From assembly GCF_000015025.1 (NCBI RefSeq), contig NC_008578.1:2100001-2132000 (forward strand): a stretch of 32,000 bases of DNA, in the 5' to 3' direction. Positions 26 to 31,703 of this stretch are shown piece after piece; within the stretch, counting starts at the first letter, position 1, and each line of letters opens with the position of its first letter. The position numbers were made by a program, and so were the translations under genes. The stretch is from Acidothermus cellulolyticus 11B (GTDB lineage Bacteria; Actinomycetota; Actinomycetes; Acidothermales; Acidothermaceae). Below the pieces are notes generated by a model that saw nothing but the letters and a program-made list of their open reading frames with translations, was not told where the DNA came from and did no database searches.

Positions 26-892
26 GTGATCACTGTGCCGAGGACGCTGGTGCTGGCAACCCGCCGGGTGCCGGCGAGCATGCGCGACATCCTTGCGCTC
101 GAGGAACTCAGCGGTCGGACCTGGCCGGCCCGCCACGAGACCTGGCTCGGCCGCTGGTGGTTGCGGGCAGCCGGCGGTTTCAGCGCACGGGCGGACGCGT
201 CGCGCCTGCTCGGCGACCCGGACCGGCCGGTGGCGGAAGCGTTCGACGCCGTACGGGCCTGGTACCGGGATCACGGAGTGGAGCCGCAACTGCGGCTCGT
301 GGCGGGGAGCCGGTTCGAGGCGGCTGCGGCCGCTGCGGGTTTTCGGCCGGCGACGACGATCCTCGTCCTCGCCGCGCCGATCGCGAGGGTCCGGAGCCGG
401 ATCGCGGAACGTTCCGCCCGCTTCGGCGGCTGGGCGGAGCCGGACGCGGGCGGGCGCGTCGGCGTGGTTCGCACAGCCGTCGTGCGGCTCGAGTCTCGAC
501 CGTGGCCCGGCTGGCTCGCGATGTTCAGGGGCGGCACGGCGTCGCATGCTGCTGACCTGCTCGCCACCCCTCGTCAGGTGGTATTCGCCGCGGTCGAGCA
601 CGCCGGCGACGTGCTGGCGATTGGACGCGGCGCACGGGACGAGGACTGGGTGGAGCTCAGTGCCGTTGAGGTTCGGCCCACCGCTCGACGTCAAGGTCTC
701 GCACACCGGATCATCGATGCGATCCTCGGATGGGCCGGCGGTCTCGGCGCATTGCGGGTCTTTCTCGAAGTTGCCGAAGCCAACGGCCCGGCCCGCTCGC
801 TGTACGCCCAACTCGGGTTCACCGAACATCACCGGTACCGGTGGTGGAGACCGGCCGAGGGCGCGGACCAGCCGAAGATCGACGCCGGGTGA
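26..892 (+). CDS. GNAT-family N-acetyltransferase
   Basis: 288-aa ORF with high GC3. The C-terminal half shows a GNAT acetyl-CoA-binding pattern (VEVRPTARRQGLAHRIIDAILGWA ... ARSLYAQLGFTEHHRY). The GTG start at 26 is unverified. Confidence 0.65.
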   Translation: MITVPRTLVLATRRVPASMRDILALEELSGRTWPARHETWLGRWWLRAAGGFSARADASRLLGDPDRPVAEAFDAVRAWYRDHGVEPQLRLVAGSRFEAAAAAAGFRPATTILVLAAPIARVRSRIAERSARFGGWAEPDAGGRVGVVRTAVVRLESRPWPGWLAMFRGGTASHAADLLATPRQVVFAAVEHAGDVLAIGRGARDEDWVELSAVEVRPTARRQGLAHRIIDAILGWAGGLGALRVFLEVAEANGPARSLYAQLGFTEHHRYRWWRPAEGADQPKIDAG

Positions 893-11539: not shown

Positions 11540-13615
11540 ATGGCCGATCAGCTCGCCGAGATCGCGTCCGGTTCCGTCCTTGATGCGCACCGGGCGGATG
11601 TCGGGCGGCAACGAGAGCGGGCGCGGCGGACCAGATTGCGCCGGTTAGCCGGCATTCTGGCCGTGCCTGCGGCGTACCTGTGGTATCGGCTACTGACCGG
11701 CCGGCCGCTGAACGTCTTCGAAATGCCCCATGTTCCGTGGCTCTTGGTGCTGTACCTGGCCGTGCCGATTCTGTTCATCTTCGGCATGGTCGGCGTGTAC
11801 TGGGGTTACGGACGCTCACCGCACCAGATCATCCGTCCCGAACAGATCGACGTCCGGCTCGACGACGTCGTCGGTATCGACGTCATCAAGGCCGAGGTCG
11901 TCCGGTCCGTCAACCTCTTCCTTGCCCACCGCACCTTCTCCCGCGACATGGGGGGGCGGCCGCGCCGGGGAATTCTTTTTGAAGGACCGCCGGGTACTGG
12001 AAAGACCTACCTGGCCAAAGCAATCGCCAAAGAGGCGAACGTACCGTTCCTCTTCGCAACAGCGACCTCCTTCCAGTCCGGATTGCAAGGGGCGACCCAG
12101 CGGAAGGTCCGTGCATTCTTCCGGGCGCTTCGTGCCACCGCGCGCAAGGAAGGCGGCGCCATCGGGTTCATCGACGAATTCGACGCCCTCGGCGGAGCCC
12201 GCCACGCGGTCAGCGCTTTCGCGCCGGCGGACCTGCTGGCACCGCGCATGCAGTGCGGCGCGCTCTCCGGTCTGCCGGATTTCGGCCCCCCGCAGATGCG
12301 CACTCCGGCGGTGCGCACTCCGACGGTCGCCAGCCCATTCTTCGGCGGCAACGATCTGGGCATGGCTGTTCAGGAGCTGCTCGTCCAGCTCCAATCGTTC
12401 GATCAGCCGCCGGCGGCGCAGCGCGTGCTGGGAGCGGTCATCGACACCGTCAACCTCTTCCTGCCCGCCCGCCGGCACATCCGCAAACCGCCGATCCCGC
12501 CGGCCAACATTCTTCTCATCGCATCAACGAACCGAGCCGACGCGCTCGATCCCGCTCTGCTGCGACCAGGTCGCTTTGACCAGCGCCTCACCTTCGACCG
12601 CCCGGACAAGAATGCGCGGCGCGCGCTCATCACGTACTTCCTCAGCAAGAAGGCGCACGCGGCTGAGCTGGACGATCCGGAGCGCATCGACGCCCTCGCC
12701 GCGGTCACGCAGGGATACAGCCCGGCCATGCTGGAAGGCCTGCTGGACAACGCACTGGTGAACGCGCTGCAATCCGGCCGCCGGGCGATGACGTGGCAGG
12801 ACGTCGAACACGCCCGCCTGGACACCGAGGTCGGTTTCGGTCAACCCGTCGGGTATACCGAGCACGAAAAGATGCTCATTGCCACCCACGAGGCGGGCCA
12901 TGCCGTCGTCGCCTGGCTTGTTGCACCGCAGCGGCGGCTGGAGATTCTGACAATTGTCAAAAGACGGAACGCGCTCGGCCTGCTTGCGCACGGCGACCGC
13001 GAGGAGGTCTACACCCGATCGCGGGCCGAAATGCTCGCCCTCATCCGCATCGCGCTCGCCGGTCAAGCGGCGGAAGAAGTGTTCTTCGGTGACGTCAGCA
13101 CCGGCCCGGGCGGCGACCTCCTGTATGCGACAAACGTCGCCGCGCACATGGTCGGCGCATGCGGCATGACGGATTCATTGATTTCGTACGCCGCGGTGCA
13201 GAACAATTCCTGGTCCGACACGAACATCGTCGGGCGAGTGCTCGCCGACCGCCACGGCCGGGAGAAAGTCGACGAATTGCTCGCCCAGCAGAAATTGCTC
13301 GCGACCGCACTCATCGAGGGAAACCGCCACTTGGTCGAGGCGCTCCGCGATGCACTCGTGCAGCGCCACGAGCTCATCGGCCACGAAATCACCGACATCC
13401 TCGAAGCTGCCGCTGCTGCCGGCGGAGTGCTGCGACCCGACGCACCGGCGTTCTCTGACGACGCGGCCCGCGAGGCCGATACCTCCCGCGAGGCCGACGC
13501 GGCCGGCGCCGACGACGCGGCCGGAGCCGACGACACGGCCGACGAGATCGTCATTGACCTTACCGACCGCACCGTTCACCGTCGGTCCACGCGGCGCGAG
13601 GAGACTCGACCCTGA
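11540..13615 (+). CDS. atypical FtsH-like membrane AAA+ ATPase / M41 zinc metalloprotease paralogue
   Basis: 691 aa. Two TM helices separated by only about 12 residues. Walker A GPPGTGKTYLAKAIA, Walker B GFIDEFDALG, SRH ASTNRADALDPALLRPGRFDQRL, zinc site HEAGHAVV, and a downstream GGDLLYATNVAAHMV. AAGGGTGAAGG lies upstream of the ATG. Confidence 0.85.
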   Translation: MADQLAEIASGSVLDAHRADVGRQRERARRTRLRRLAGILAVPAAYLWYRLLTGRPLNVFEMPHVPWLLVLYLAVPILFIFGMVGVYWGYGRSPHQIIRPEQIDVRLDDVVGIDVIKAEVVRSVNLFLAHRTFSRDMGGRPRRGILFEGPPGTGKTYLAKAIAKEANVPFLFATATSFQSGLQGATQRKVRAFFRALRATARKEGGAIGFIDEFDALGGARHAVSAFAPADLLAPRMQCGALSGLPDFGPPQMRTPAVRTPTVASPFFGGNDLGMAVQELLVQLQSFDQPPAAQRVLGAVIDTVNLFLPARRHIRKPPIPPANILLIASTNRADALDPALLRPGRFDQRLTFDRPDKNARRALITYFLSKKAHAAELDDPERIDALAAVTQGYSPAMLEGLLDNALVNALQSGRRAMTWQDVEHARLDTEVGFGQPVGYTEHEKMLIATHEAGHAVVAWLVAPQRRLEILTIVKRRNALGLLAHGDREEVYTRSRAEMLALIRIALAGQAAEEVFFGDVSTGPGGDLLYATNVAAHMVGACGMTDSLISYAAVQNNSWSDTNIVGRVLADRHGREKVDELLAQQKLLATALIEGNRHLVEALRDALVQRHELIGHEITDILEAAAAAGGVLRPDAPAFSDDAAREADTSREADAAGADDAAGADDTADEIVIDLTDRTVHRRSTRREETRP

Positions 13616-13637: not shown

Positions 13638-13643
13638 TAGGCT
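13638..13643 (+). promoter_or_regulatory. -10-like hexamer TAGGCT, 7 nt upstream of the GTG at 13651 (candidate leaderless promoter)
   Basis: TANNNT match with no SD before the GTG. Confidence 0.4.
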
Positions 13644-13650
13644 GCACCCC

Positions 13651-14178
13651 GTGCCTCCATCCGCTCCTCAGCCGGACCGACGCTGGACATGGCTGACCGC
13701 CGGGATCGGCGTCCTGCTTGGTCTCGTCACCGGGCTGCTGACCGCCGTCCAAGCAACCCGGGTTGTCGACGGCGTCCCGGTCGGAGCACTCGCCGCCTTC
13801 GGCGCCAATTTCGGCGGCGGAGTCCTGATCGGTTGGGGACTGCGGGCACGGGAAGCGGCGGCGCTCCCGGCCTTCGGGTGGCTCCTTGCCGTTTTCCTGC
13901 TCATCGCGCTGCCGCGCCCAGGCGGAGACGTCCTCCTTCCCGGTTCCGGCGCCCCCGTCGTCGCCTTCCTTCTCGGCGGAATCGCCGGTTCGCCTGCCTC
14001 GATCTTCGTGGCGGCGGCCCTGCTCCGCCGGCAGGCCAAGGCAGCGAACTCCGGCTCCCGGTCGCAGCTCCCGAGCGCCGCACCCACCGCCAGCCGCCCG
14101 GACGACATCGACCGTCCGGGCGCCGCCGCGCGGGACACCACCGACGGCGCTTCACCGAACAGCCGTACCAGCCGATGA
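13651..14178 (+). CDS. polytopic membrane protein, unknown function
   Basis: 175 aa with very high GC3. Four hydrophobic helices (WLTAGIGVLLGLVTGLLTAV, ALAAFGANFGGGVLIGWGL, LPAFGWLLAVFLLIAL, VVAFLLGGIAGSPASIFVAAALL) and a disordered tail. May correspond to the small membrane protein (DUF6113-type) that often follows mshB in actinobacteria. That link is from memory and unverified. Confidence 0.55.
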   Translation: MPPSAPQPDRRWTWLTAGIGVLLGLVTGLLTAVQATRVVDGVPVGALAAFGANFGGGVLIGWGLRAREAAALPAFGWLLAVFLLIALPRPGGDVLLPGSGAPVVAFLLGGIAGSPASIFVAAALLRRQAKAANSGSRSQLPSAAPTASRPDDIDRPGAAARDTTDGASPNSRTSR

Positions 14179-14185
14179 GGAGGCC

Positions 14186-14743
14186 GTGCGCGATTCCGAA
14201 ACGACCACGGGGACGGCGGCGACGGAGGCACGGCGTGCGGCAGGACCAGCGGCGGCTGACGGCGGAACAGGTGGGGGACCGCGCCTCGCGGACGTCGAGG
14301 AGGCCGGCTACGTGCTCGCCCGGCTCGGCGGCGGCCGGTATGCCATCGAGATGTCGGCCGTAGCGGAAGTCGGCCGCGTTCCATGGATCACCCGGGTTCC
14401 CGGCACGCCGGTCTGGCTCGCCGGGGTGGCGAACTGGCGGGGCCGCATCCTCGCCGTCGTCGATCTGCGTCCGCTGCTCGGCACGGAGATGCCGCCGGTC
14501 GGGTCCCTCGGGCGGTTGGTCGTCATCACGGACGGCACCGTGACGGCCGGCCTGCTCACCGAGGGCGTGCATGGCGTCATCCACTGTCCTGCCGATCAAC
14601 TTGATCCACCGCCCCGCACCGTCGACCCGGACGTCGCGGCTCTGCTCCTCGGTCAGTTCACGCCGGACCACGGACCCGTCGCGGTCATAAACCCGGCTGC
14701 ACTCCTGGGGCTGCGCCGGAAATTGCCGAACGTCCGGACGTGA
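14186..14743 (+). CDS. cheW: CheW-like coupling protein
   Basis: CheW domain YVLARLGGGRYAIEMSAVAEVGRVPWITRVPGTPVWLAGVANWRGRILAVVDLRPLLG. The in-frame GTG at 14186 is preceded by GAGGAGG (14177-14183). The track ORF from 13886 overlaps the preceding gene. Confidence 0.8.
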   Translation: MRDSETTTGTAATEARRAAGPAAADGGTGGGPRLADVEEAGYVLARLGGGRYAIEMSAVAEVGRVPWITRVPGTPVWLAGVANWRGRILAVVDLRPLLGTEMPPVGSLGRLVVITDGTVTAGLLTEGVHGVIHCPADQLDPPPRTVDPDVAALLLGQFTPDHGPVAVINPAALLGLRRKLPNVRT

Positions 14744-14779
14744 CCTCATGCCGGCACCACGCTTCAGAAAGGGCGATCG

Positions 14780-14845
14780 CCTCCCGATGCGTTGACCAGG
14801 TATCCCAACGGGAGCCTCCCGACGGGTTGACCAGGTATCCCAACG
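14780..14845. repeat. tandem direct repeat, two 31-nt copies (14780-14810 and 14815-14845), 29/31 identical
   Basis: cctcccgaTgCgttgaccaggtatcccaacg versus cctcccgaCgGgttgaccaggtatcccaacg, separated by ggag. Lies in the cheW-mcp spacer. Confidence 0.9.
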
Positions 14846-14870
14846 CGCGCCGGACAGCTGAGGAGGGCCG

Positions 14871-16538
14871 GTGGACGTCGTCAAGCGGCTGCAACAGGTA
14901 TCAGCAATCTGCACGGGATTAATGCTCGCGCTGGGAATCGCCGGCGTCCTCGCCGTGGGGTCGCACCCCACTCCCGGCGTCGATATCCGGCCCGCTGTCG
15001 TTGCCGGCTGGCTCGGCGTCGCCGTCCTCGGTGCGACTCTCGTCACCGTCGCCTGCCTGGCACGCGTGGATCATCCAGCCCTTGGGCCGACGGGTGCGGT
15101 AGCCGATCTCGGCCGGCTCGTCTACCTCGCCGGTATCACCGGCGCGCTGGTCGCGGCGGCCGGGTTCGCAACCCCGCTGTGGATTCTCTACATCCCGGTT
15201 CTGCTCACCACGGCGGTCAGCGACGCGCCGTGGAAGTCATTCGGCTACGCCTTTCTCGCCGCCGTGCTGGCGCTCACGGCAACGGCCGCAACCCACCATC
15301 TCGACCGCAGCACCGCACTGACCACCCTCCTGGCGATTCCGGCGATTCCGGCGGTCGTCTGGTTCGCCAGCACGCTCGCGCACTCCGTCACCAACCTCCG
15401 GCAGCGGCTGGACGAGGAGCGCCGGCGCATGCACGACGAACTCGAACGAACCCGAGCGGAACTCCTCGACGAAGCCCGCGCCGAGCGGGAGAACCTGCAA
15501 GACGAAATCCGGCGGGAACGCGCCGAATTGAAGGCGAAGGTCGAACGGCTCTCCGAAGCCTTGGCCGCAGCCGCCCGCGGTGACCTCTCTGCGTACCAGC
15601 AGATTGACCTCGGTCCGCCGACCGGCGAGGACGACGAAGCGCTCGCGGTGCTCCAGGCGGCGTTCGCCAATACCCTGGGCAGCCTCCGACACCTCGTGGA
15701 ACAAATCCGGGCCAGCGGCGAGAGCATCTCCGCGGCCGCGGGACAACTGCTGGCGACCGCCGAGGAGCACGCGGCGTCCGCGACGCAACAGTCCTCAGCG
15801 GTGGCTGAGACGACCAGCACCATCGAGGAACTCGCCGCCACCGCAGCGCAGATCGCCGAGACCGCCGAAGCGGTCGCCCGGTACGCCGCCGAGACCCTGC
15901 GGTACGCCGAGGAGGGCCGGGAGGCCGTGGCGGCCTCCGTCGCGGCGATGGACACCATCGCCAACCGGGTCGACTCCATCGCGAGCCGGGCCTTGTCTCT
16001 CGGCGAGAAATCCCAGGAGATCGGGCGGATTCTCGAGGTCATCGACGACTTGGCCGATCAGACCAACCTCCTCGCCCTCAACGCCGCGATTGAGGCCGCC
16101 CGTGCGGGGGAGCACGGTCGCGGTTTCGCGGTCGTCGCCTCCGAAGTGCGCAAGCTCGCGGAGCGTTCCCAGGAATCCGCGGCAAAAATCCAAGGCATCG
16201 TGAGCGAAATTCAAGCCGAGACGAACGCCACCATTCTCGCCACCGAAGAAGGGGCGAAGGAGGTGCATGCCGGAACGGAATTGGCGCGCGGCGTCGTCGA
16301 GGCCCTCGAACGCATCTCCGGCATGGTGGACGAAACAACCACAGCGGCAAAGGAAATCTCCATCGCCACCCAGCAGCAACGGTCGGCCTCCGACCAGGTG
16401 GTGACAGCGATGATGCAGGTCTCGGACGTCTCGCGTCAGTACGTCGTCGGATCGAAGCAGGCGGCTGCGTCCGCGGCTCAGCTGAACGTGCTCGCGGCCG
16501 AATTGCGGGCGTCGATCGCGCAATTCCGCATTTCCTGA
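14871..16538 (+). CDS. methyl-accepting chemotaxis protein with a six-TM membrane-embedded N-terminal module
   Basis: Signalling hairpin tip [50 protein letters not shown]-like segment RGDLS...[18 protein letters not shown]. Six hydrophobic segments in aa 11-170. AGGAGG lies 4 nt upstream of the GTG. Confidence 0.9.
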
Positions 16539-16545
16539 GGCGCCG

Positions 16546-19065
16546 ATGGGCGGTTGGGCGGAAGACCCGGAACTGCTCGCCACGTTCCGTGCCGAGGTGG
16601 AGGAAAGGCTCGCCTCGCTGTCCGCTGGCCTGCTGCGGCTGGAGACTGGAGCCGCCTCCCGGCAGGTCCTCTCCGCGCTGTTCCGTGACGCCCACACGGT
16701 CAAAGGCTCCGCTCGGATGATGGGCCTGACCGCCGTCCTGGAGACCGCGCACGCCGCCGAAGACCTCCTCGCGGCACTCCGCGACGGCCGGTTCCCGGTG
16801 CGACGCGATCTGGTTGACCTGTTGTTGGCGACGGTCGATGGCATCAGCCGATCCCTGCCGGGCGACCCGGCTCCGGTCGGTGAGGAGCATCTGCGGGCGC
16901 TCATTGCCGCGCTGCGGTCGGCGCTGGACGGGGAAGAACCGGTGACCGTCCCGCGGCTCCCGGAACCGACCGTCACGGTCCAGAGTGGCCCCCAGCCTCT
17001 CGCCGTACCACCGCCGCCGGCGCGGCCCGGCACCACGCCCTCGGCTACCGAGACCCCGGCGCCGGCCGCGCAAGCCGCCGCCCCGCCGTTCGCGGTCCCT
17101 CCGCCCCCGGACGGGCAAGCCGCCGGCCCACCCCTCGCGGTCCCTCCGCCGCCCGCTGGGCCAACCGGATCACCGGCAGGATCCACGGCACGACCACCTC
17201 GGCCAGCGGGATCCGCCCCTCCTCCGGCGGGATCCGCCCCGGTCGGGAGGCCCTCCACCCCGACGGCCACGCTCTCCACGCCGGCAGCCGCCGCCTCCAC
17301 GCTGTTGGAGTCGATCACCCCGCCTGCCGCCGTCCAGATCGGCGGCCCGACAGAGCCGGAACGCGGCTTCGACGCCATCCGAGTCGCCTCCCGCCGGGTC
17401 TACGACCTGCTCGACGTCGTCGGCGAAGCCGAGCTCGACGCCCGACGGGTGGAGCGCAACGCCATAGAGCTCGAAACACTCCTCACCGAGCAGCAACGAT
17501 GGCTCCGGGCGGTCCGCGCCGCCGCGACCCAACCATCCGAGGACCTGGAGCTGGCCCTCCATCGCCTTGTCGCGACAAGCGATCAGCTGGTCGCCTCCGG
17601 GCACCAACTGCGCGAGCGGGTCGAGGACGCGCGAAGCCGCCTCGCCCAGGTGCGAGACGGCGCGATGGGCTTGGCGATGGTCCCGGTCCGGCGCGTACTC
17701 TCCGGGTTTCCCCGACTGGTCCGGGACGTCGCCAGCGCCGGCGGCAAGGACGTCGGACTCCGGCTGGTCGGGGAGGATGTCGAGCTTGACAAGAAGGTGC
17801 TGGACGCCATCGCCGACGCACTCCGCCACTTGGTAACCAACGCGGTCGACCACGGATGCGAGACCCCGGCCGAGCGGGTTGCCGCGGGAAAGCCTCCCCG
17901 GGCAACCGTCACCGTGGAGGCACGGTCAGCCGGCGGGACCGTCGTCCTGGAGGTGGCCGACGACGGCCGGGGCATCGACGAAAGCGCAGTCCGCCGCCAG
18001 GCGATCGAACGCGGGCTCCTCCCGCCGGATAGCACCGTGTCCGGCCCGGCGCTTCTGCAGGTGCTCTTCGCACCGGCGTTCTCCACCGCCCCGACCGTGA
18101 CGGTGACGTCGGGGCGTGGCGTGGGCTTGGACGTCGTCCGGACGGTCGTCGACGAACTCGGCGGCACGATCGACATCTACACCGAACCGGGCCGCGGCAC
18201 CCGCTTCGTCCTCACCTTGCCGATCACACTCGGCGTCCTGCGCTGCCTGATCGCCCGGGTGGGAGCCGAACGGTACGCCGTCCCGGTGCCGAACGTCATT
18301 GAATCGATCAGCCTGCGCGACGTGCCGGTGGACAACCTCGCCGGGGCGCCGGTCGTCGTCCGTCACGGCACCTCCGTGCCGCTGCTCGACCTCGGCGCGG
18401 CGCTGGGCGTGGAGGGTGTCCGGGATCCCCGCGCTGCCCTTGTCGTGCGCCAAGGCGGCGGCGATCTCGTCGCGTGGTCGGTCGACCGGTTGGAGGGCGA
18501 GCTCGAGCTCGTCGTCAAGGACCTCGGATCGTTCATCGGGCGGTTGCCGCTCGTCACCGGGGCGACGATCGACGGCGATGGCACCGTGGTGTGCCTCCTC
18601 GATCTACGGGAGATGTCCGCCCGGACCGGGGCGGCCAGCACCGCGCAACCAGCGACGGCGCCGCCCGAGCTGGAGACGCCCCGACCGCTGGGACGCCGGC
18701 CGCGAATCCTCGTTGTCGAGGATTCCGTCGGAGTCCGGGAGCTGGAGCGGGTGATCCTGGAGGGTGCCGGTTATGAAGTCACCACCGCGGTCGACGGGCT
18801 CGACGGGTTGGCCCGCCTGCGCACCGAACTGCCCGACCTCGTGCTGGCCGATGTCGAGATGCCGGGGATGGACGGATTCACCCTTACCCGAACCATCCGC
18901 CGGACCCGAGGCTGGGAACACCTCCCGGTAGTGATCATGACGTCGCGAGGGGACGACGGCGACCGGCGAGCCGGCATGGAAGCCGGGGCGAACGCGTACC
19001 TGCTCAAGAGCGAATTCGATCAAGCGCAGCTGGTCGAGACGGTCGGCCGGCTCCTCGGGCGGTGA
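16546..19065 (+). CDS. cheA: CheA-type histidine kinase fused to a C-terminal receiver domain (CheA::REC hybrid)
   Basis: Hpt His box FRDAHTVKGSARMMG. P3-like IRVASRRVYDLLDVVGE. N box HLVTNAVDHG, G1 DDGRGID, F box FAPAFST, G2 SGRGVGLDVV. P5 CheW-like region LIARVGAERYAVPVPNVIES. Receiver ILVVEDS...DLVLADVEMPGMDG...VIMTS...AYLLKS. Confidence 0.9.
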   Translation: MGGWAEDPELLATFRAEVEERLASLSAGLLRLETGAASRQVLSALFRDAHTVKGSARMMGLTAVLETAHAAEDLLAALRDGRFPVRRDLVDLLLATVDGISRSLPGDPAPVGEEHLRALIAALRSALDGEEPVTVPRLPEPTVTVQSGPQPLAVPPPPARPGTTPSATETPAPAAQAAAPPFAVPPPPDGQAAGPPLAVPPPPAGPTGSPAGSTARPPRPAGSAPPPAGSAPVGRPSTPTATLSTPAAAASTLLESITPPAAVQIGGPTEPERGFDAIRVASRRVYDLLDVVGEAELDARRVERNAIELETLLTEQQRWLRAVRAAATQPSEDLELALHRLVATSDQLVASGHQLRERVEDARSRLAQVRDGAMGLAMVPVRRVLSGFPRLVRDVASAGGKDVGLRLVGEDVELDKKVLDAIADALRHLVTNAVDHGCETPAERVAAGKPPRATVTVEARSAGGTVVLEVADDGRGIDESAVRRQAIERGLLPPDSTVSGPALLQVLFAPAFSTAPTVTVTSGRGVGLDVVRTVVDELGGTIDIYTEPGRGTRFVLTLPITLGVLRCLIARVGAERYAVPVPNVIESISLRDVPVDNLAGAPVVVRHGTSVPLLDLGAALGVEGVRDPRAALVVRQGGGDLVAWSVDRLEGELELVVKDLGSFIGRLPLVTGATIDGDGTVVCLLDLREMSARTGAASTAQPATAPPELETPRPLGRRPRILVVEDSVGVRELERVILEGAGYEVTTAVDGLDGLARLRTELPDLVLADVEMPGMDGFTLTRTIRRTRGWEHLPVVIMTSRGDDGDRRAGMEAGANAYLLKSEFDQAQLVETVGRLLGR
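16990..17244 (+). repeat. in-gene Pro-rich tandem-repeat linker of CheA
   Basis: P(L/F)AVPPPP occurs three times (30- and 15-codon spacing) and PAGSAP(P/V) twice (21-nt period, gcgggatccgcccc repeated). Lies where a P2 domain would normally sit. Confidence 0.8.
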
Positions 19066-19176
19066 CAGAACACCCCGCACGGTGGCCGGCTCCTCGGGCG
19101 ATAGCAGCCCGCCGTGGCCGGCAACCGTCCACCCGGCCGGTCACAAACCGCCGTGGGCGGTGACAGACCGCCGCAC
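19045..19176. repeat. degenerate triple direct repeat seeded by the last 21 nt of cheA, including its stop codon
   Basis: ggccggctcctcgggcg occurs at 19045 and again at 19084, a 39-nt in-frame offset. A third ggccggc head is at 19116. The tail gggcggtgacaga..ccgcac occurs at 19057-19080 and 19155-19176. Confidence 0.85.
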
Positions 19177-19313
19177 AGCGCGCTCCGTCTTTCGGCCGGG
19201 CAAACCCGGCGAATGGAGTACGGTTCGGCGTCTCAGCAGCCGATGAAGTCGATGAGTCCCTCGGTCGAAACTCCGAGCAGACCTTTCGACTGATCTTCCC
19301 GGAGGGAGATTCG

Positions 19314-20276
19314 ATGCCGACCGTCGTCATCGCCGATGACAGTCCCACCCTGCGGCGGATCGTCACCAGCGTGCTGACCAAGGAAGGGTACGAGGTGATC
19401 ACCGCAGAGGACGGCGTCGAAGCGGTCCAGGCAGTCTTCCGGTCGCGGCCGGACGCGGTCATCCTCGACGTGCAGATGCCGCGCGTCTCCGGCTACGTCG
19501 CCGCCCGGCTGCTCAAGGACGACTGGCAGACGGCGGATATTCCGATCATCCTCCTGACGTCGCTGGACGCCGCAAGCGACCGGTACTGGGGCACGCAAGC
19601 CGGCGCCGATCGGTACCTCACGAAGGACTTCGAGGCTCCCGAACTGGTAGCCGCCGTCTCCGAAGCGATCGCCCAGGCCGAACGGGCCCGCGGGGGGCGT
19701 CCGGCGTTACGGCCGGATCCCGTGGAGCTGGAACCGGATGATGTCTTCAGCCGGGTCTGCGACCTGCTCGATCGCAAACTCTTCGAGACGTCCGTCGCCG
19801 CCGAGGTGACGTCGATCGCCTCCAGTGCACACGGATTCGAAGAGACGGTGGCCGGAGTCCTGGCCATCTTGCAACGATTCGTCGACAACGAACTGGCCGC
19901 CGTCCTCCTCGCCGAGGAACGGACGGCGTATGTCGCAGTGGCCCGGGAGGCGTCAGAGGCCCACTACGCGGACTTCGTCACGGCAGCAGTCGATGCGCTC
20001 AACGCGGCCGCCGGTACGTCGCTCACCCCGGCCGAGGTCAATGTGCGGGTCGCGGATCCCAATCACCTTCTCGGCGCGGACGACGAGGGTCGGATGGCGA
20101 CGTTTCTGTCGATGCCGTTGCGGGGTCACGGCGGACGGGTCATTGGGGTGCTCGCGCTGTCCAGCGCGGCGAAGAATGCCTTCTCCGAGACCGCGCTCGC
20201 GACACTCAAGCTGGTCGAGGATCCCGCAGCCATCGTCATCGACAACGCCCGGCTCGCTGGGACGCCGGTCGGCTGA
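19314..20276 (+). CDS. response regulator: receiver domain fused to a GAF-like domain, no recognisable effector domain
   Basis: Receiver VVIADDS...[13 protein letters not shown]...IILLTS...RYLTKDF. The C-terminal ~190 aa end in [41 protein letters not shown], which is typical of GAF C-termini. GGAGGGA lies 5 nt upstream of the ATG. Confidence 0.8.
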
Positions 20277-20377
20277 GCCGAAAAGCGCATCGGCTGAGCC
20301 GAGACGCCGACTCGCTGGGACGCCGGTCGGCAATGCCCGGCCCGGACGCCAGCCGGCAATGCCCGGCCCGGACGCCA
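20253..20377. repeat. nested direct repeats starting inside the 3' end of the response-regulator gene
   Basis: ctcgctgggacgccggtcggc at 20253-20273 and 20311-20331. cggctgagccga at 20270 and 20291. Identical 24-mers cggcaatgcccggcccggacgcca at 20328-20351 and 20354-20377. Confidence 0.9.
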
Positions 20378-20473: not shown

Positions 20474-21724
20474 GTGGCACTTACCTCCTCGGCCGAATCC
20501 CCGGTACCGGTACGGGAAGTCGCGCGGCAGATCGGACTCTGGGTCGGCCGGCTCGGTCGCATCTGGGTCGACGGGCAGCTCACGCAAATAAAAATCCGCC
20601 CAGGCACGAACACCGTTTTCTTCAACCTGCGGGATCCCTCGGCCAACGTCACCCTGCTCGCCACCTGCCCGCGTCAGGTCTTCGAGTGCATCGAGCCGAA
20701 ACCCACGGAAGGTCTGCGGGTGGCGGTCTTGGGCAAGCCGGAATTCTACGTGCCGCGCGGCAGTTTGCAGCTCGTCGTCCACGACATCCGGCCGATCGGC
20801 ATTGGCGATTTACTGGCCCGCCTGGAACGCCTGAAGAAAATCCTTGCCGCTGAAGGGCTGTTCGCCCCCGAACGGAAGCGCCCGCTCCCCTTTCTGCCGC
20901 GCGTTGTCGGGCTGATTTGCGGCCGCGGTTCGGCGGCGGAACGGGACGTCGTCGAGAACGCGCGCCGGCGCTGGCCCGCCGTCCGTTTCGACATCGCGGC
21001 GGTGGCGGTGCAAGGTCCGTACGCGGTACCGGAGATCGTCGCCGCCCTCCGCCGGCTCGACGACGACCCCGTGGTCGACGTCATCGTCATTGCCCGCGGA
21101 GGCGGCAGCGTCGAAGACCTCCTGCCTTTCTCCGACGAGACCCTGCTGCGCGCGGTCGCCGCCTGCCGCACGCCGGTGGTGAGCGCAATTGGTCACGAGA
21201 CCGACACACCGCTCCTCGACTTCGTCGCCGATGTCGCCGCCTCCACGCCCACGGACGCCGCCCGCCGGATCGTGCCGGACGTGGCGGAGCAGTACGCCCA
21301 GCTCGCGCAGCTCGGCGATCGACTCCGGAACGCACTGCGACATCGGATCGACCGGGAGCAACAGGTCCTCGACACGTTGCGCTCCCGGCCGGTCCTGGCA
21401 CACCCCGTCCAAGACATCAACCGGCGTGGCGAGGAGATTCTGCGGCTGGTGCGCGCCGGGCGGACCGCGCTGGACACGGCGATCCGGGCGGCGGACGCCG
21501 ACGCCCGCCACCTCGTCGCTCGTCTGCGGGCGCTCGCCCCGGCGGCAACCCTCGAACGCGGGTATGCCATCGTCCTCGACCCCGCCGGCCGGGTCATCCG
21601 TGGAGCCGATGAGGTCCAGACCGGAGACGAGCTCGTCGTCCGGCTCGGCCGCGGCCGGTTGCGGGTCACCGTCACGGATGTGGCACCAGCCGAGACGGAC
21701 CACCCACTAGGCTCGCTCGCGTGA
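20474..21724 (+). CDS. xseA: exodeoxyribonuclease VII large subunit
   Basis: The N-terminal OB-fold region [31 protein letters not shown] and the catalytic region [48 protein letters not shown] are typical XseA. The track start at 20333 lies inside the intergenic repeats. Confidence 0.9.
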
Positions 21725-22011
21725 CCGAGCCGCCGCTCCCCCACGAATCAGCCGATGACGGCCGGGCTCGCCTCTCGTACGAGGACGCCCGCGATGAGCT
21801 CATCCAGATCGTGCAGCGGTTGGAGCTGGGCGGCCTACCGTTGGAGGAAGCGCTGCGGCTCTGGGAGCGCGGCGAAGAACTGGCCCGCGTCTGCCAGGCG
21901 TGGCTGGACGGGGCCCGCGCCCGGCTCGAGGCGTACCGTGCACCGGAGCAGAGCGCGGCGAACGACGTCTCCGCACCAGGATCCGCCGAGGAGCACGACC
22001 ATGGCCGATAA
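21721..22011 (+). CDS. xseB: exodeoxyribonuclease VII small subunit
   Basis: [52 protein letters not shown]. The GTG overlaps the xseA stop (GTGA). Confidence 0.85.
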
Positions 22012-23050
22012 CGACGTCGAACGACAGCCGGAGGCGCCCGATCGCAACTTGGCGCTCGAACTGGTCCGCGTGACCGAAGCGGCGGCGATGGCCGCTGGGC
22101 GATGGGTCGGCCGGGGTGACAAGGACGCCGCCGACCACGCGGCGGTGGAGGCAATGCGCCGGCTCATCGGCACGGTGTCGATGCGCGGGGTCGTCGTCAT
22201 CGGTGAAGGGGAGAAAGACCACGCGCCGATGCTGTACAACGGCGAGCACGTCGGCGACGGCACCGGTCCGGAATGCGACGTCGCGGTCGACCCGATTGAC
22301 GGCACCCGGCTCACCGCGATGGGAATGAACAACGCCATTTCGGTCCTCGCGGTCGCGGACCGGCATTCGATGTACGACCCGTCCGCCGTCTTTTACATGC
22401 AGAAACTCGTCACCGGCGCGGTGGCGGCTCCGTACGTCGACATCAACGCGCCGGTCTCAGCCAACATCCGGGCCGTGGCGGCCGCGAAGGGCTGCGCAAA
22501 CCAGGACGTGACCGTCGTCGTTCTCGACCGGCCACGGCATGCCGATCTCGTGCGGGAAATTCGGGAGACCGGCGCGCGCATCAAATTCATCATGGACGGC
22601 GATGTGGCCGGCGCGATCATGGCGGCGCGCGAGGACACCGGCGTTGACCTGCTTCTGGGCATCGGCGGAACACCAGAGGGCATCATCGCCGCCTGCGCCG
22701 TGAAATGCCTCGGCGGTGTCATTCAAGGGAAATTGTGGCCGCGTGACGAAGAGGAGCGGCGCAAAGCGTTGGACGCCGGACACGACCTTGACCGGGTCTT
22801 GACCAATGATGACCTGGTCCGGTCCGACAATGTCTTCTTCTGCGCCACCGGGATCACGGACGGCGAGTTGCTCCGCGGAGTCCGGTATCGCGGTGGCGGG
22901 GCGCAGACCAGCTCGCTCGTCATGCGGTCAAAGAGCGGGACGATCCGGATGATCCACAGCGAGCATCGGTTGTCCAAGCTGCGGTCGTACGCGATCGTCG
23001 ACTATGACCAGCGGCCGGTGGCCTCCAGCGATCGAATTCAACTTCGCTGA
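22001..23050 (+). CDS. glpX: class II fructose-1,6-bisphosphatase
   Basis: [38 protein letters not shown]...[14 protein letters not shown]...VAVDPIDGT is the GlpX signature. The ATG at 22001 is in frame within the longer track ORF and overlaps the xseB end by 11 nt. Confidence 0.9.
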
Positions 23051-27447: not shown

Positions 27448-29601
27448 TCACGAACAGATTGGACCCAGCCAACGCAGGACGAGAACAGCGACGTCGTCGG
27501 CTCGTTCCGGGCCCAGCAACGCGCTGATCACGTGATCAGCGATCGCACTCGCCGGCTCGGTCCAATGCTCGGTGACCACCACGGCGAGGCGGGCCATGCC
27601 GTCGTCAATGTCGCGATGCCGGTCCTCGACGAGGCCGTCGGTGTAGAAGACAGCAACCGCGCCTGGGCTGAGGGTGCCCTGCCAGAGCGACGCTCCGCCG
27701 CCTGGGGCGCCAAAGGGCGTACTCGGCTCGATCGGAACGAACCATGGCCGACCGTCCTCGACGATGAGCGGCGGCGGATGGCCCGCCGAGGCAACCCGCA
27801 ACAATCCGCTCCATGGGCGTAGTCGGGCAAAAACCGCGCTCGCCATCCGCGCCAGACCCAGCTGATCCCAATGGGCGTGCAGCCGGGCGACGAGCTCGTC
27901 CGGCCCACGCGTCTCGGCGCGGATGGCCCGGCATGCCGCACGCAATTGGGCCATCATCGCCGCGGCCTGCATGTCGTGCCCGGCCACGTCGCCGACCATG
28001 ATGGCGACCTCGCCGTCCGGCATGGTGGTGACATCCCAGAAATCGCCACCGACTTCGGCGTCACGGGTGCCGGGCTGGAAACAGACCGCATAATCAACAC
28101 CCGGGAAAACCGGAAGATCGCTCGGGAGCAGGCTCGCCTGCAGGTTGTGGGAGAGACGGCGCTCGGCGTCATAGCGGCGCTCCTTGGCCACGACGAGCGC
28201 CGCCCGTCGAGCCAATTCTTCGGCCAGCTTCACGTCCTCGTCGGTGAAACGCCGGTGCGAATTGGTGCTCACCAGCGTGATGCTCCCGAGCACCTGACCG
28301 TCCGCAATCATGGGCACCGTGATAAAGCTGGTGTATCCCAACGCACGGACCAATTGGTAGTGCTCCTCATTGCGTGTCGTCGCCCGCAGGAAGTCGTCGC
28401 TCATCTCCGCGGCCCAGCGAGACACGCCGTCACGCAGCACCTGGGCGGCCGGATTGTCGCCGTCCAGCCGCGGCGGGAAACGCCGTCGCAGGTCATCCAC
28501 CAGGGGCTGGGCGGTAGGGTCCGCGTGGACCGCCGCGACCCGCTCGATGCGCCGGCCGTCATCCACCAGGACGTCGACGATGCAGATGTCACCGAGGGCC
28601 GGCACGGCGGCCGCGGCCAGCGCGTGCAGCGACTCGGAGAATCCGCTGACGCGCGCCAAGACTGTCGACGCGTCGAGCAAGAACTGCTGAGCACGCTGTA
28701 CGGCGGCAAGCTCGCGGAGCAACCGGTCGCGGTGTGCCTCGGCCGCGCGTCGTTCGGTCGCATCGTGCACGTACCAGACCCGCCCGAGGAGCGTCCCACT
28801 CTCGTCGGTGATGGGCGCCCCGTACGTTTCGACAATCCGCCCATCGGCAAGGGTGAGTTCCAGGCTCTGCGCTTCGGTCGGATTGCGGCGTGCGTACTCA
28901 AAAGCGTCCAGCAGACGCTGTGGTTCACGGAGTAACGAGCCGTACCTCTGCAGCAGCTCGACGACGTCGCCGCCGACAGGAATCGCCTCGCTTGGCAGCC
29001 GGCACATCTCAGTGAATCGCCGATTCACCGCCAGGATCGTGAGATCCGGCGACCACGCGATAACGCCATCCGGCGCGGCCTCGACGACGGCCTGCAAATA
29101 GCGTGAGAGCAGCGCCGCACGCTCGAGCCGAATCCGCTCGGTGACTTCGCGCAGGACGCCGACCACCGAAAAGCCCTCCGGAGTCGGCTTCCCGGCCCGG
29201 CCGAATCGGATTTCAACCGGAATTTCCACACCGTCCCGGCGTCTGGCTGCCACGTCGACCGCCTGGCCCGCCGGCAGCCGGCCTTCGCCGGTTCGGACGT
29301 AACGCTCGAATCCCGCGCAGTGCGCGCGCTGATATCGCTGCGGAACGAAGTCAAGAAGGGGAGCGCCGCTCAGGCTTCCCGGTTCCGCACCGAGGAGTTT
29401 CTCAGCCGCCGAATTCGCCAGCACAATCCGACCGTCGGGAGCGACGACGAGAACAGCATCCACCAGAGAGTCGATGACCAGGTGGGCGTCAACGTCTTCC
29501 GGGGACGCCGGCCGGGCGGCCGTCGTAGCCTCGTCGCCCACTGTGTCGTCATGCGACGATTCCTGGCCGCCTTTATCCGGCGGAGAGTCCGGGTCCGTCA
29601 C
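27448..29601 (-). CDS. PAS-PAS-GAF-PP2C (SpoIIE-type) serine/threonine phosphatase
   Basis: Two PAS-like modules (IDSLVDAVLVVAPDGRIVLANSAAEKLL and VVEAAPDGVIAWSPDLTILAVNRRFTEM). A GAF-like block (GDICIVDVL...GSITLVS). PP2C motifs GGDFWDV, VGDVAGHDMQAAAMMAQLR and FYTDGLVE. The track ORF to 29970 overlaps the upstream gene. GTG at 29601 has GAGG 6 nt upstream. TTG at 29613 and GTG at 29619 are alternative starts. Confidence 0.85.
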   Translation of the reverse strand: MTDPDSPPDKGGQESSHDDTVGDEATTAARPASPEDVDAHLVIDSLVDAVLVVAPDGRIVLANSAAEKLLGAEPGSLSGAPLLDFVPQRYQRAHCAGFERYVRTGEGRLPAGQAVDVAARRRDGVEIPVEIRFGRAGKPTPEGFSVVGVLREVTERIRLERAALLSRYLQAVVEAAPDGVIAWSPDLTILAVNRRFTEMCRLPSEAIPVGGDVVELLQRYGSLLREPQRLLDAFEYARRNPTEAQSLELTLADGRIVETYGAPITDESGTLLGRVWYVHDATERRAAEAHRDRLLRELAAVQRAQQFLLDASTVLARVSGFSESLHALAAAAVPALGDICIVDVLVDDGRRIERVAAVHADPTAQPLVDDLRRRFPPRLDGDNPAAQVLRDGVSRWAAEMSDDFLRATTRNEEHYQLVRALGYTSFITVPMIADGQVLGSITLVSTNSHRRFTDEDVKLAEELARRAALVVAKERRYDAERRLSHNLQASLLPSDLPVFPGVDYAVCFQPGTRDAEVGGDFWDVTTMPDGEVAIMVGDVAGHDMQAAAMMAQLRAACRAIRAETRGPDELVARLHAHWDQLGLARMASAVFARLRPWSGLLRVASAGHPPPLIVEDGRPWFVPIEPSTPFGAPGGGASLWQGTLSPGAVAVFYTDGLVEDRHRDIDDGMARLAVVVTEHWTEPASAIADHVISALLGPERADDVAVLVLRWLGPICS

Positions 29602-29631
29602 ACTGCACCTCAATGTCACCTCTTCGAGAGA

Positions 29632-29661
29632 ACCGTATATCTGCGAAGCATGCCCGGCCAA
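29632..29661 (-). promoter_or_regulatory. sigma-70-type promoter candidate for the PP2C gene (-35 TTGGCC, 18-nt spacer, -10 TACGGT)
   Basis: The minus strand reads TTGGCC gggcatgcttcgcagata TACGGT, about 25-30 nt upstream of the proposed start. Confidence 0.35.
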
Positions 29662-29726
29662 CCTACCGACCAGGTGGAATCCGCTCGCGTCCCGCAAGGG
29701 TCCGCAACATGATCCGCGCGTCGCTG

Positions 29727-31703
29727 CTAACTCTCTAGCAGAGCGCGCAACTCCGCCTCGCTGGCAACGGGCCGTTGACACTCGAAATTGCGACACACGT
29801 AGGCAAGGGACTGTCCCGGCGGGGCGGTGCGCCCTTCGAGGAGCGGCGCCCACGGCGGTCCGTCGGCGGCCCGGGCCGCACGCACCGCACCCGGCCGATC
29901 GACAAGCCACGCCGTCCGCCACAAGGAACCATCCCCGACAACGGCAATCTCCGCCGGCCCGTCCAGCCACGCCGCGATCGTCGCCAGTCCATAACCGACG
30001 GCATGAGGGTACCGGCGGGCGAGCCGGACCGTGGGCCGAAGCGCGCCGGGAACAGCGTCCCGATGCCGCTGGGACCCGGTGAGCGCCGCGTAGGTGAGGA
30101 GCGCATGTGCGGCGGCGGAATTCCCACTCGGTGTGGCGTCATCGGTGAACGTGCGAGGCCGGCGGACCAGCCGCTCGGCGTCGTCCGCTGTGTCGTAAAA
30201 GCCGCCGTCCTCAGCTCGGAAGTGGGTGAGTATCGCCTCCAGCAAGGCGCCGGCGAGCTCGAGATAGCGAGCCTCACTGCGGATTTGCGCCAGCGTCAGC
30301 AGTCCCTGGGCAACATTCGCGTAGTCGTCCAAGGCTCCGTCCACCGGATTTCGTTCGCCGTCTCGGGACGAGCGGCACAACCGTCCGTCGCGCAGGTGGA
30401 CGTCAATGAGGTACTCCGCACTGCGCACCGCTGCATCCACAAGGGCATCGCGATCCAGGAGAAATCCCGCCTCGGCGAGGCTTGCCACCGCCAGCCCGTT
30501 CCACGACGCGATGATTTTGTCGTCCCGCGCCGGTTGGGCGCGACGGGACCGGACGGCGAGAAGGCGCTGCCGGATGCGCCGCCAGCGCTCGAGATCCGGC
30601 GCATCGACGGCCAGTTGCAGCACCGACCGCCCATCCTCGGTATTGCCGTGCTCGGTCACCCCGAACAACTCCGCGGCATAGGCCGCGTCGTCGCTCCCTA
30701 ACGCATCGCGCAGCTCGGCGAGCGTCCAGACATACGTCCCGCCTTCGACCCCGCCGGCGTCCGCGTCGAGAGCAGCGGCGAACCCGCCGGCCGGCGTGCA
30801 CAGGTCGCGCAGCAGGAATTCCGCCACTTCCTCGACGATGCGCCGGGCGAGCTGATGCTGGGTGCGCCGCCACCAATGCAGGTACACGCCGAGAAGCTGG
30901 GCATTGTCATACAGCATTTTCTCGAAATGCGGCACCGTCCACGCGGCGTCGACGCTGTACCGATGAAATCCGCCGGCCAGCTGGTCGTATATTCCGCCGC
31001 GGGCCATGTGTTCACACGTGACGGCGACCATCTCCATCGCGCCGAGCGAGCCATAGCGAAGAAGAAACTCAAGGGTGGTCGCGGACGGGAACTTAGGTGC
31101 ACTGCCGAAACCCCCATGCACCGGATCGTACTGACGCCGTAGTTCACCGACCGCCGCGTCAAGGAGATCCGCATCTATCGCGCCCAGGTCGTCGGTGAGC
31201 CGACTCCCTTGTTGCAGAACCGCCACGACCCGGCGCGCCGCCGCAACGAGATCCGCAGATCTGCTCTGCCACGCCGTCCAGACCGCCTCGAGCACCTGCC
31301 GAAAAGCAGGCATTCCGGCGCGGGGTTCCTTGGGAAAATACGTTCCCGTGAAAAATGGTTCACCGTCCGGCGTCAAGAAGCACGTCAGCGGCCACCCGCC
31401 GCGGCCGGTCATCGCTTGGGTCGCTTCCATGTAGACCGCGTCGATATCGGGACGTTCCTCACGGTCCACTTTGACGCAGACAAAATGCTCGTTCATGAAT
31501 GCCGCGGTTGCGGGATCCTCGAACGACTCATGGGCCATCACGTGGCACCAATGGCATGAGCTGTACCCGATCGACAGCAGAATCGGTACGTTGCGCCGCC
31601 GCGCCTCGGCGAAAGCCTCCTCGCACCACGGCCACCACTCGACCGGATTGTCCTTATGCTGCAGCAGGTATGGCGACGTCGCCGTCGCCAGCCGGTTCGC
31701 CAT
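29727..31703 (-). CDS. thioredoxin-domain protein of the DUF255/YyaL family (thioredoxin fold plus six-hairpin glycosidase-like domain)
   Basis: [83 protein letters not shown] is the family's hallmark N-terminus. AAGGAG lies 8 nt upstream of the ATG. Confidence 0.9.

Follow-up and report, generated by a model that had tools for sequence, protein, structure and literature searches.

The window analysed here comprises 32,000 nt of Acidothermus cellulolyticus 11B (NC_008578.1, positions 2,100,001–2,132,000 of the forward strand; coordinates below are those of the window). It contains a five-gene chemosensory module, which is the core of a pathway of the alternative cellular function (ACF) class and was already catalogued as ACF. 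The pathway probably runs from a membrane receptor of the 40-heptad (40H) class through CheW and the hybrid kinase CheA::REC to a REC::GAF response regulator as the output, with adaptation supplied in trans by CheB and CheR encoded at a distance. What is new is modest and consists of a conserved REC::GAF output and a split gene arrangement, both of which are real. The genes of the module are as follows.

13651–14178, + strand: membrane protein, DUF6113-like, 175 aa; WP_011720705.1 / Acel_1870, exact match
14186–14743, + strand: CheW (Pfam CheW); WP_011720706.1 by position
14871–16538, + strand: methyl-accepting chemotaxis protein (MCP; Pfam MCPsignal); WP_011720707.1, exact match
16546–19065, + strand: CheA::REC (Pfam Hpt, HATPase_c, CheW and Response_reg); WP_011720708.1, exact match
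19314–20276, + strand: REC::GAF (Pfam Response_reg and GAF); WP_011720709.1, exact match

The open reading frame calls placed the five genes in the same direction at positions 13651–20276, and reproduced the intergenic gaps of 7, 127, 7, and 248 nt that a first-pass annotation of the window had described. The start given there for the membrane protein, 13638, was out of frame and lay 13 nt ahead of the start at 13651, from which the protein matches Acel_1870 exactly. Four of the five sequences (the membrane protein, MCP, CheA::REC, and REC::GAF) were exact matches to proteins of strain 11B. CheW was identified as WP_011720706.1 from its position between the exact matches WP_011720705.1 and WP_011720707.1, not from its own sequence. 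One gene caller placed the start of CheW at 14312, which would give a protein of 143 aa and widen the first gap from 7 to 133 nt. The domains proposed earlier for CheW (Pfam CheW, 4.6e-27), MCP, CheA::REC, and REC::GAF were all found by Pfam well above threshold, and the named CheA, CheW, and MCP equivalogs of NCBIfam were matched below threshold only.

The kinase CheA::REC was composed of a P1/Hpt domain containing His50, a linker, the P3-P4-P5 domains, and a C-terminal receiver containing Asp769, and P2 was absent. The Pfam matches were Hpt (3.2e-16), HATPase_c (7e-23), CheW (1e-18), and Response_reg (2.3e-25), with a single Hpt and a single CheW domain. Residue His50 was located in an HxxKG motif, and the N, G1, and G2 boxes and the P5 domain were intact. 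Residues His50 and Asp769 were invariant in 57 of 57 CheA orthologues, and Glu725 and Asp726 were present in 56 of them; for the Thr and Lys residues of this receiver, the sequence was inspected by eye only. The linker between P1 and P3 (residues 119–280, window positions 16900–17385) was 162 aa long, against an orthologue median of 47, and 70% of it consisted of Pro, Ala, Gly, Thr, and Ser.

The input part of the receptor (MCPsignal, 5.7e-46) was formed by about six N-terminal membrane helices (residues 8–171), and an extracytoplasmic ligand-binding domain was absent. The membrane part was followed by a Glu/Arg-rich coiled coil, a segment aligning with the HAMP domain of E. coli Tar, and the signalling domain. 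No HAMP match was given by Pfam for the window protein, and HAMP was found by Pfam in only 3 of 51 family members. The alignment to Tar, a 36-heptad (36H) receptor, was made through 50 MCP sequences from related loci. Because the signalling hairpin had exactly two symmetric 14-residue insertions relative to that of Tar (residues 365–378 and 445–458), the receptor is of the 40H class (36 + 4). Strain 11B has been listed with four 38-heptad (38H) receptors and one 40H receptor, and one 40H receptor apiece is given for the remaining ACF-bearing species of that list (PMC10746217, Table S4).

One strict match to the methylation consensus was found in the receptor, starting at residue 315 and containing a Glu-Glu pair aligned with Gln309 of Tar. 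Relaxed matches started at residues 295 and 499, and Tar has four strict ones. The 10-residue methylation motif (residues 316–325) was read in the same way in 42 of the 50 aligned MCP sequences. A PilS-like six-helix membrane domain (6TM_PilS) was matched below threshold, at 22.6 bits against a cutoff of 27, in 2–3 of 51 receptor orthologues (L056:7675–8214 and L044:8378–8917), and the window receptor (14871–15400 region) had no 6TM_PilS match in Pfam. This domain was rejected as evidence and is a lead only.

The response regulator REC::GAF was matched by Response_reg (8.6e-26) and GAF_2 (3.6e-11), with GAF and GAF_3 also matched, and contained no GGDEF match and no enzymatic or DNA-binding domain in Pfam and NCBIfam. 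Residues Asp8, Asp9, Asp52, Thr82, and Lys104 were invariant in 59 homologues. Both REC domains of the module carry the residues of a phosphorylatable receiver, an acidic pocket and an acceptor Asp (Asp52 in REC::GAF and Asp769 in CheA). The homologues were 73–89% identical, nearly all of about 320 aa, and better conserved than the kinase. Many of them were labelled 'PilH' or 'CheY-like' by JGI pipelines, and these names are automatic. When the GAF domain alone was compared with 1.8 billion representative proteins, REC::GAF proteins of 314–334 aa were returned down to 33% identity, followed by giant multi-GAF proteins. No ligand-informative GAF match was found with Foldseek, and no ligand can be proposed.

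In the AlphaFold2 model of REC::GAF (mean pLDDT 82.7), the REC domain (residues 1–126) was connected by a flexible linker and a helix (residues 141–171) to the GAF domain (residues 175–300). Among PDB structures, the model was matched over its full length by 6oaq, 6oap, and 6ob8 only, in which a dual-sensor histidine kinase contributes its REC-GAF modules; the remaining top-ranked matches were mostly receiver domains, and the PDB sequence search was dominated by the receiver. These modules have the same order as the window protein, a receiver, a helical connector, and a GAF domain, and at ~18–20% identity and an r.m.s.d. above 11 Å only the folds and the domain order are shared. These modules bind a bilin through GAF and drive the histidine kinase to which they are fused, whereas the window protein ends after GAF. 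Because the full-length analogues are REC-GAF modules of a histidine kinase, the model suggests that the two domains may communicate through the shared helix.

The module was compared with about 65 related loci, which comprised ~60 species-representative genomes (one genome per species was taken in the scan) and metagenome contigs. The core set of a receptor, CheW, CheA, and a receiver-containing output, assigned by Pfam in the window, was conserved in these loci. CheA was 50–71% identical to the window CheA in the ~60 actinomycete genomes, which were labelled Frankiales, Frankiaceae, Sporichthyaceae, "Mycobacteriales" (as GTDB uses the name), and Nanopelagicales; the cultured Longivirga aurantiaca is among them. 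The order was constant, with mshB, an FtsH-like gene, a small membrane protein gene, cheW, mcp (1–5 copies), cheA::REC, and the REC::GAF gene. The last two genes adjoined in 64 of 64 loci, with a median spacing of 16 nt and overlap in 12; the 248 nt of Acidothermus was an outlier. In actinomycetes of the Frankiales, Acidothermus, Sporichthyaceae, and Nanopelagicales type, the locus keeps one place in the core genome, behind mshB, and its inheritance is vertical.

The pair of CheA::REC and REC::GAF was also kept, at 33–37% GAF identity, in one Acidimicrobiia locus and two related metagenome contigs. The locus of the Acidimicrobiia bacterium (L090, 1–5779) contained mcp, cheW, cheA::REC, the REC::GAF gene, and cheR in a tight cluster, and the same order ending in cheR-TPR was present in L093 (906–7599), which was reached by way of a CheR sharing 51% identity with the L090 protein. 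In both, cheR overlapped the 3′ end of the REC::GAF gene and cheB was absent from the cluster. In L091, cheA::REC overlapped the REC::GAF gene, and a distant REC::GAF in L089 had the same actinomycete context as the window module. The kinase–regulator pair is an old conserved unit, physically coupled to CheR in one branch.

The next relatives of CheA::REC, at 31–39% identity, belonged to Verrucomicrobiota, Myxococcota, Acidobacteriota, and other phyla. Among 18 such distant loci (L066–L083), CheR was encoded upstream of CheA in 12, and CheB was encoded just downstream of CheA in 14 and matched elsewhere in two more (tblastn). One of them, L081, had the order CheW, CheR-TPR, MCP (with CHASE3), CheA::REC, CheB, and multi-receiver kinases, and it was in this locus only that the TPR fusion was checked with Pfam. 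CheR-TPR fusions are typical of ACF clusters (PMC3447774). The order in L081 is a Wsp-like ACF layout, and the nearest CheA::REC relatives outside Actinomycetota belong to Wsp-like clusters.

Adaptation and motility genes were searched with E. coli CheR, CheB, CheZ, FlhB, and MotB as tblastn queries. None of the five was found in the window, and the Pfam-labelled gene tables held no che, flagellar, or pilus families within 10 kb beyond either window end. The local absence of cheR, cheB, flagellar, and pilus genes in the first-pass annotation was thus borne out. CheR and CheB were also missing within ~10 kb of the module in all of the ~65 actinomycete loci. FlhB, MotB, and CheZ were missing from ~1 Mb of related loci, and pilus families were absent from the gene tables of these loci. 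The sensitivity of the search was adequate, as it detected CheR in 12 of the 18 distant loci and CheB in 16.

At the level of the genome, strain 11B has two chemosensory systems, F5 and ACF (PMC10746217, mBio 2023, Table S3). In that table, the ACF system consists of CheA WP_011720708.1 and CheW WP_011720706.1, which are the window genes, together with CheB WP_011719060.1, CheR WP_011719061.1, and a second CheW, WP_011719062.1, in the same row. The F5 system consists of CheA WP_011720628.1 with its own CheW, CheB, CheR, and CheX. The three accessions WP_011719060–WP_011719062 are consecutive and lie ~1,645 numbers from those of the window genes, which indicates a separate cheB-cheR-cheW locus. 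A protein search with the CheR of L090 returned CheRs of Acidimicrobiia and WspC-like CheRs, and no CheR of Acidothermus or Frankiales.

Because none of the ~65 related loci has cheR or cheB within ~10 kb, the local absence of these genes, and presumably the split arrangement with it, characterises the clade as a whole; the distant cheB/cheR set is documented for strain 11B. The earlier description of the module as a pathway lacking adaptation enzymes is not supported, since CheB and CheR are listed at another locus in the published ACF row of 11B and are assigned there to the same class as this CheA. Before a pathway is called adaptation-free because cheR and cheB are missing nearby, the whole genome should be checked. 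The premise that pathways of this kind keep CheR and CheB is likewise too strong if it is read as always in the cluster; as counter-examples from general background, the Dif cluster of Myxococcus xanthus and the Tax cluster of cyanobacteria are without cheR and cheB.

The features of an ACF-type module that had been noted at the outset, a CheA::REC hybrid, a non-CheY regulator with only a GAF domain, no local link to motility, and a core-genome context, were supported. With ACF systems such as Wsp of Pseudomonas, the module shares a hybrid CheA::REC, CheW, a single dedicated receptor of the 40H class, a non-CheY regulator as the output, and the absence of flagellar or pilus gene linkage. However, Wsp ends in the REC-GGDEF diguanylate cyclase WspR, whereas the window system ends in REC::GAF, which has no GGDEF, and identity with Wsp was rejected for this reason. 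The window cluster also differs from Wsp in being without cheR and cheB, which are at a second locus, in having one CheW only, and in its gene order (W-M-A-RR). Furthermore, its receptor has a six-helix membrane input, and a periplasmic domain of the Wsp type is absent.

The F5 class has a CheA with an extra CheW domain, the order AW...BR, and 38H receptors (PMC10746217). Identity with F5 was rejected, since the window CheA has one CheW domain and a receiver, the order is W-M-A, the receptor is of the 40H class, and the F5 CheA of 11B is another protein (WP_011720628.1). A type IV pilus (Tfp; Pil-Chp/Tax) system was rejected on the basis of the single Hpt, the gene tables without pilus families, and the automatic nature of the 'PilH' labels.

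Chemosensory pathways with non-flagellar outputs, as here, include Che3 and Dif of M. xanthus and Tax/Pix of cyanobacteria. Some of these clusters lack one or both adaptation enzymes, like the window cluster, and Tax uses the CheA::REC hybrid PixL with dedicated response regulators. Their end points are the NtrC-type CrdA, the CheY-like DifD, and PatA/CheY-type regulators acting on pili. We know of no report of a REC::GAF output for any of these systems, all of which come from outside the actinobacteria. Literature searches yielded no description of this arrangement, of these accessions, or of a REC::GAF chemosensory output, and no functional study of ACF systems in Frankia-like actinomycetes. 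The proposal of an uncharacterised variant therefore stood with respect to function and the REC::GAF output, which are undescribed in the literature searched, and failed with respect to the lack of adaptation enzymes.

Upstream of the module lies a gene for a further membrane protein.

11540–13615, + strand: FtsH-like AAA+/M41 membrane protease paralogue (Pfam and motifs read from the sequence)

This protein was matched by Peptidase_M41 (1.5e-29) and AAA (2.9e-25). Its Walker A, SRH, and HEAGH motifs were read as intact, and it had an insertion of ~70 residues after Walker B and GLQG where the MFVG pore loop is usual. The FtsH-like gene was located directly upstream of the module in 32 of the 34 related loci with enough flank and was lacking from L014 and L086. 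As a neighbour it is conserved yet facultative, and it is only a putative member of the chemosensory system.

The membrane protein Acel_1870 contained four hydrophobic segments and had no Pfam match, even at E ≤ 10. However, 17 of the 23 aligned members of its family matched PF19608 (DUF6113), and an orthologue profile built without the window sequence matched Acel_1870 at E 1.5e-24. From these matches, the protein is classified as a putative divergent member of DUF6113. The DUF6113 gene was absent in L021, L032, L039, and L041, where the FtsH-like gene abuts cheW. Because each of the two neighbours is missing from some related loci, neither is obligatory for the module. Of the earlier placing of a four-helix membrane protein within the module, the four helices were retained, and the protein is probably not specific to the module.

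The left flank of the module contained a GNAT gene, ispH, rmuC, ychF, a NUDIX gene, sdhBA, a PIG-L/mshB-like gene, and the FtsH-like gene, and the right flank contained xseA, xseB, glpX, fumC, uppS, and a PAS-GAF-PP2C gene. The core-metabolism flanks described previously (mshB, xseAB, glpX, and fumC) were confirmed by the annotated gene tables. The absence of a mobile-element boundary agreed with the lack of a tRNA gene in the window and of integrase or transposase genes among the annotated open reading frames. An origin as a mobile island was ruled out by the missing tRNA gene, the lack of a composition break, and the fixed position after mshB in ~60 genomes. The PAS-PAS-GAF-PP2C (SpoIIE-type) phosphatase gene (27448–29970, − strand), ~7 kb downstream of the module, encodes an unrelated signalling protein. 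In the region 21721–23050, the longest open reading frame of glpX (431 aa, from 21755) overlapped xseB (21721–22011), and gene callers start later to give 349 aa; the longer form is probably an over-extension. No match was found in an Rfam search of the window, and the promoter and terminator scans of the window were at chance level only.

The genes downstream of the module varied among the relatives (flavin reductase, YCII, cysS, and VanW, then fdxC, an aminotransferase gene, and dapD), and xseA was located there in Acidothermus only. In Acidothermus, the fdxC-like and aminotransferase genes were inverted and located to the left of ispH (L094:7297–8729, ~1.3–2.7 kb left of the first base of the window). 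Because these genes are downstream of the module elsewhere, their position indicates that a local rearrangement in Acidothermus brought xseA next to the REC::GAF gene. The Rv0428c-like GNAT gene (window 26–892) adjoins the inverted fdxC-like and aminotransferase genes.

Short tandem duplications of 21–39 nt were located at nearly every junction of the cluster and within the CheA linker (14779–14848, 17197–17238, 19045–19177, and 20249–20369). Two of these regions are described as follows.

14779–14848, no strand assigned: tandem 35-nt duplication in the cheW–mcp spacer (repeat family D2, 89% identity), with GTTGACCAGGTATCCCAACG in each copy
19045–19177, no strand assigned: 39-nt tandem duplication across the cheA stop codon and a third, partial copy (repeat families D1 and D5)

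The 35-nt duplication, with GTTGACCAGGTATCCCAACG twice, may be a candidate promoter or operator, or a mere junction duplication. The spacer between cheA and the REC::GAF gene is unusually long in Acidothermus because local tandem duplications fill much of it.

In the proposed pathway, the single 40H receptor with its membrane-embedded input would sense a membrane-associated or intramembrane cue and, via CheW, control the autophosphorylation of CheA::REC at His50. The phosphoryl group would be transferred to Asp52 of REC::GAF, which is taken as co-transcribed and as the output, and also to Asp769 of the kinase's own receiver, acting as a sink or modulator. Through the long connecting helix, phosphorylation of REC::GAF would alter how the GAF domain dimerises or binds partners, and the output would be the binding of a protein or a small ligand, with catalysis and DNA binding excluded in this proposal. 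Adaptation would occur in trans, through the distant ACF-class CheB and CheR (with the second CheW), at the receptor's conserved Glu/Gln pairs. The sequence shows every component required for signalling to be intact; we infer which way phosphate is transferred, the involvement of the distant CheB and CheR, what kind of signal is sensed, and what REC::GAF acts on.

Several points weigh against this pathway. The link between the window CheA and the distant CheB and CheR is taken from the published table and the MiST check of its authors. Conservation of the methylation motif is consistent with methylation and no proof of it, and is not independent evidence because the whole signalling domain is very conserved. 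The GAF domain has no diagnostic ligand motif, and REC::GAF could serve as a phosphate sink and not as the output. In addition, given the 248-nt spacer and its internal repeats, cheA and the REC::GAF gene may not be co-transcribed in Acidothermus.

If the pathway were a truly adaptation-free minimal one, the distant CheB and CheR would serve other receptors, and the CheA receiver could be the sole feedback. The lack of cheR and cheB around the module and the window ends, the one strict methylation site against four in Tar, and the Acidimicrobiia clusters with cheR and no cheB would all fit such a pathway. However, a second CheB/CheR/CheW set beyond that of F5 is listed in the same ACF class as the window CheA (PMC10746217), cheR is translationally coupled to the REC::GAF gene in distant relatives of the subfamily, and the Glu-Glu pair equivalent to Gln309 of Tar, with its flanking small residues, is kept in nearly all orthologues. 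An adaptation-free pathway is therefore considered unlikely. Still less probable is a role of the module as an additional input to motility, flagellar or type IV pilus, with REC::GAF as a CheY/PilH-like protein or as a phosphate sink of F5. Strain 11B does have a flagellar gene set (PMC10746217, supplement; flagellar genes are also mentioned in PMC4255298) and an F5 che system, and the JGI labels and the PilS-like matches in 2–3 receptor orthologues point in the same direction. Nevertheless, the names are automatic and the matches are under the Pfam threshold, the published class is ACF and neither F nor Tfp (PMC10746217), F5 pairs with 38H receptors, and the kinase has one CheW domain in a gene order unlike that of F5. 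The gene tables and the ~1 Mb flanks also held no flagellar or pilus gene.

The genes could also be neighbours by ancestry only, with REC::GAF, the membrane protein, or both unrelated to the Che proteins and REC::GAF serving another histidine kinase. The 248-nt spacer in Acidothermus and the absence of the DUF6113 and FtsH-like genes from some loci could be read in this way, and in mycobacteria, which lack che genes, mshB is likewise followed by a small membrane protein. For REC::GAF, however, this is countered by its invariable adjacency to cheA::REC, with 12 overlaps, and by the pairing kept in Acidimicrobiia in a different genomic context. Overall this explanation is improbable, and for the membrane protein it is plausible.

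Within the preferred ACF pathway, the target of REC::GAF may be sought among the neighbouring genes. Since no neighbours recur other than the FtsH-like protease and the DUF6113 protein, these two are, speculatively, the first candidates. A bolder form of this idea is that the CheA::REC and REC::GAF pair defines a distinct, widespread actinobacterial ACF subfamily (Actinomycetes and Acidimicrobiia) whose output is neither enzymatic nor transcriptional. Phosphorylated REC::GAF would in that case regulate a membrane machine, as an adaptor or allosterically, and the co-conserved FtsH-like protease with DUF6113 would be the most plausible such machine; we regard this as a rather unlikely possibility. 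RssB-type adaptors offer an analogy only. They combine a receiver with a non-catalytic domain, phosphorylation could control the delivery to, or the activity of, an AAA+ protease, and here an FtsH-like gene is the usual neighbour. However, RssB carries a PP2C-like domain and its partner protease is ClpXP, whereas the link to the FtsH-like protein is putative and its gene is absent from some loci. If REC::GAF acts on these proteins, the six-helix receptor would be tied to regulated proteolysis of envelope proteins, which would be a new class of chemosensory output.

ACF pathways are common, and few of their outputs are known, namely c-di-GMP synthesis, transcription factors, and kinases. The conservation of REC::GAF in uncultured soil and freshwater actinomycetes and its pairing with the kinase out to Acidimicrobiia mark it as the endpoint of a conserved pathway. 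If its partner or ligand were identified, the chemosensory repertoire would gain an output type, and a signalling system of a poorly studied, environmentally abundant actinobacterial group would receive a first function.

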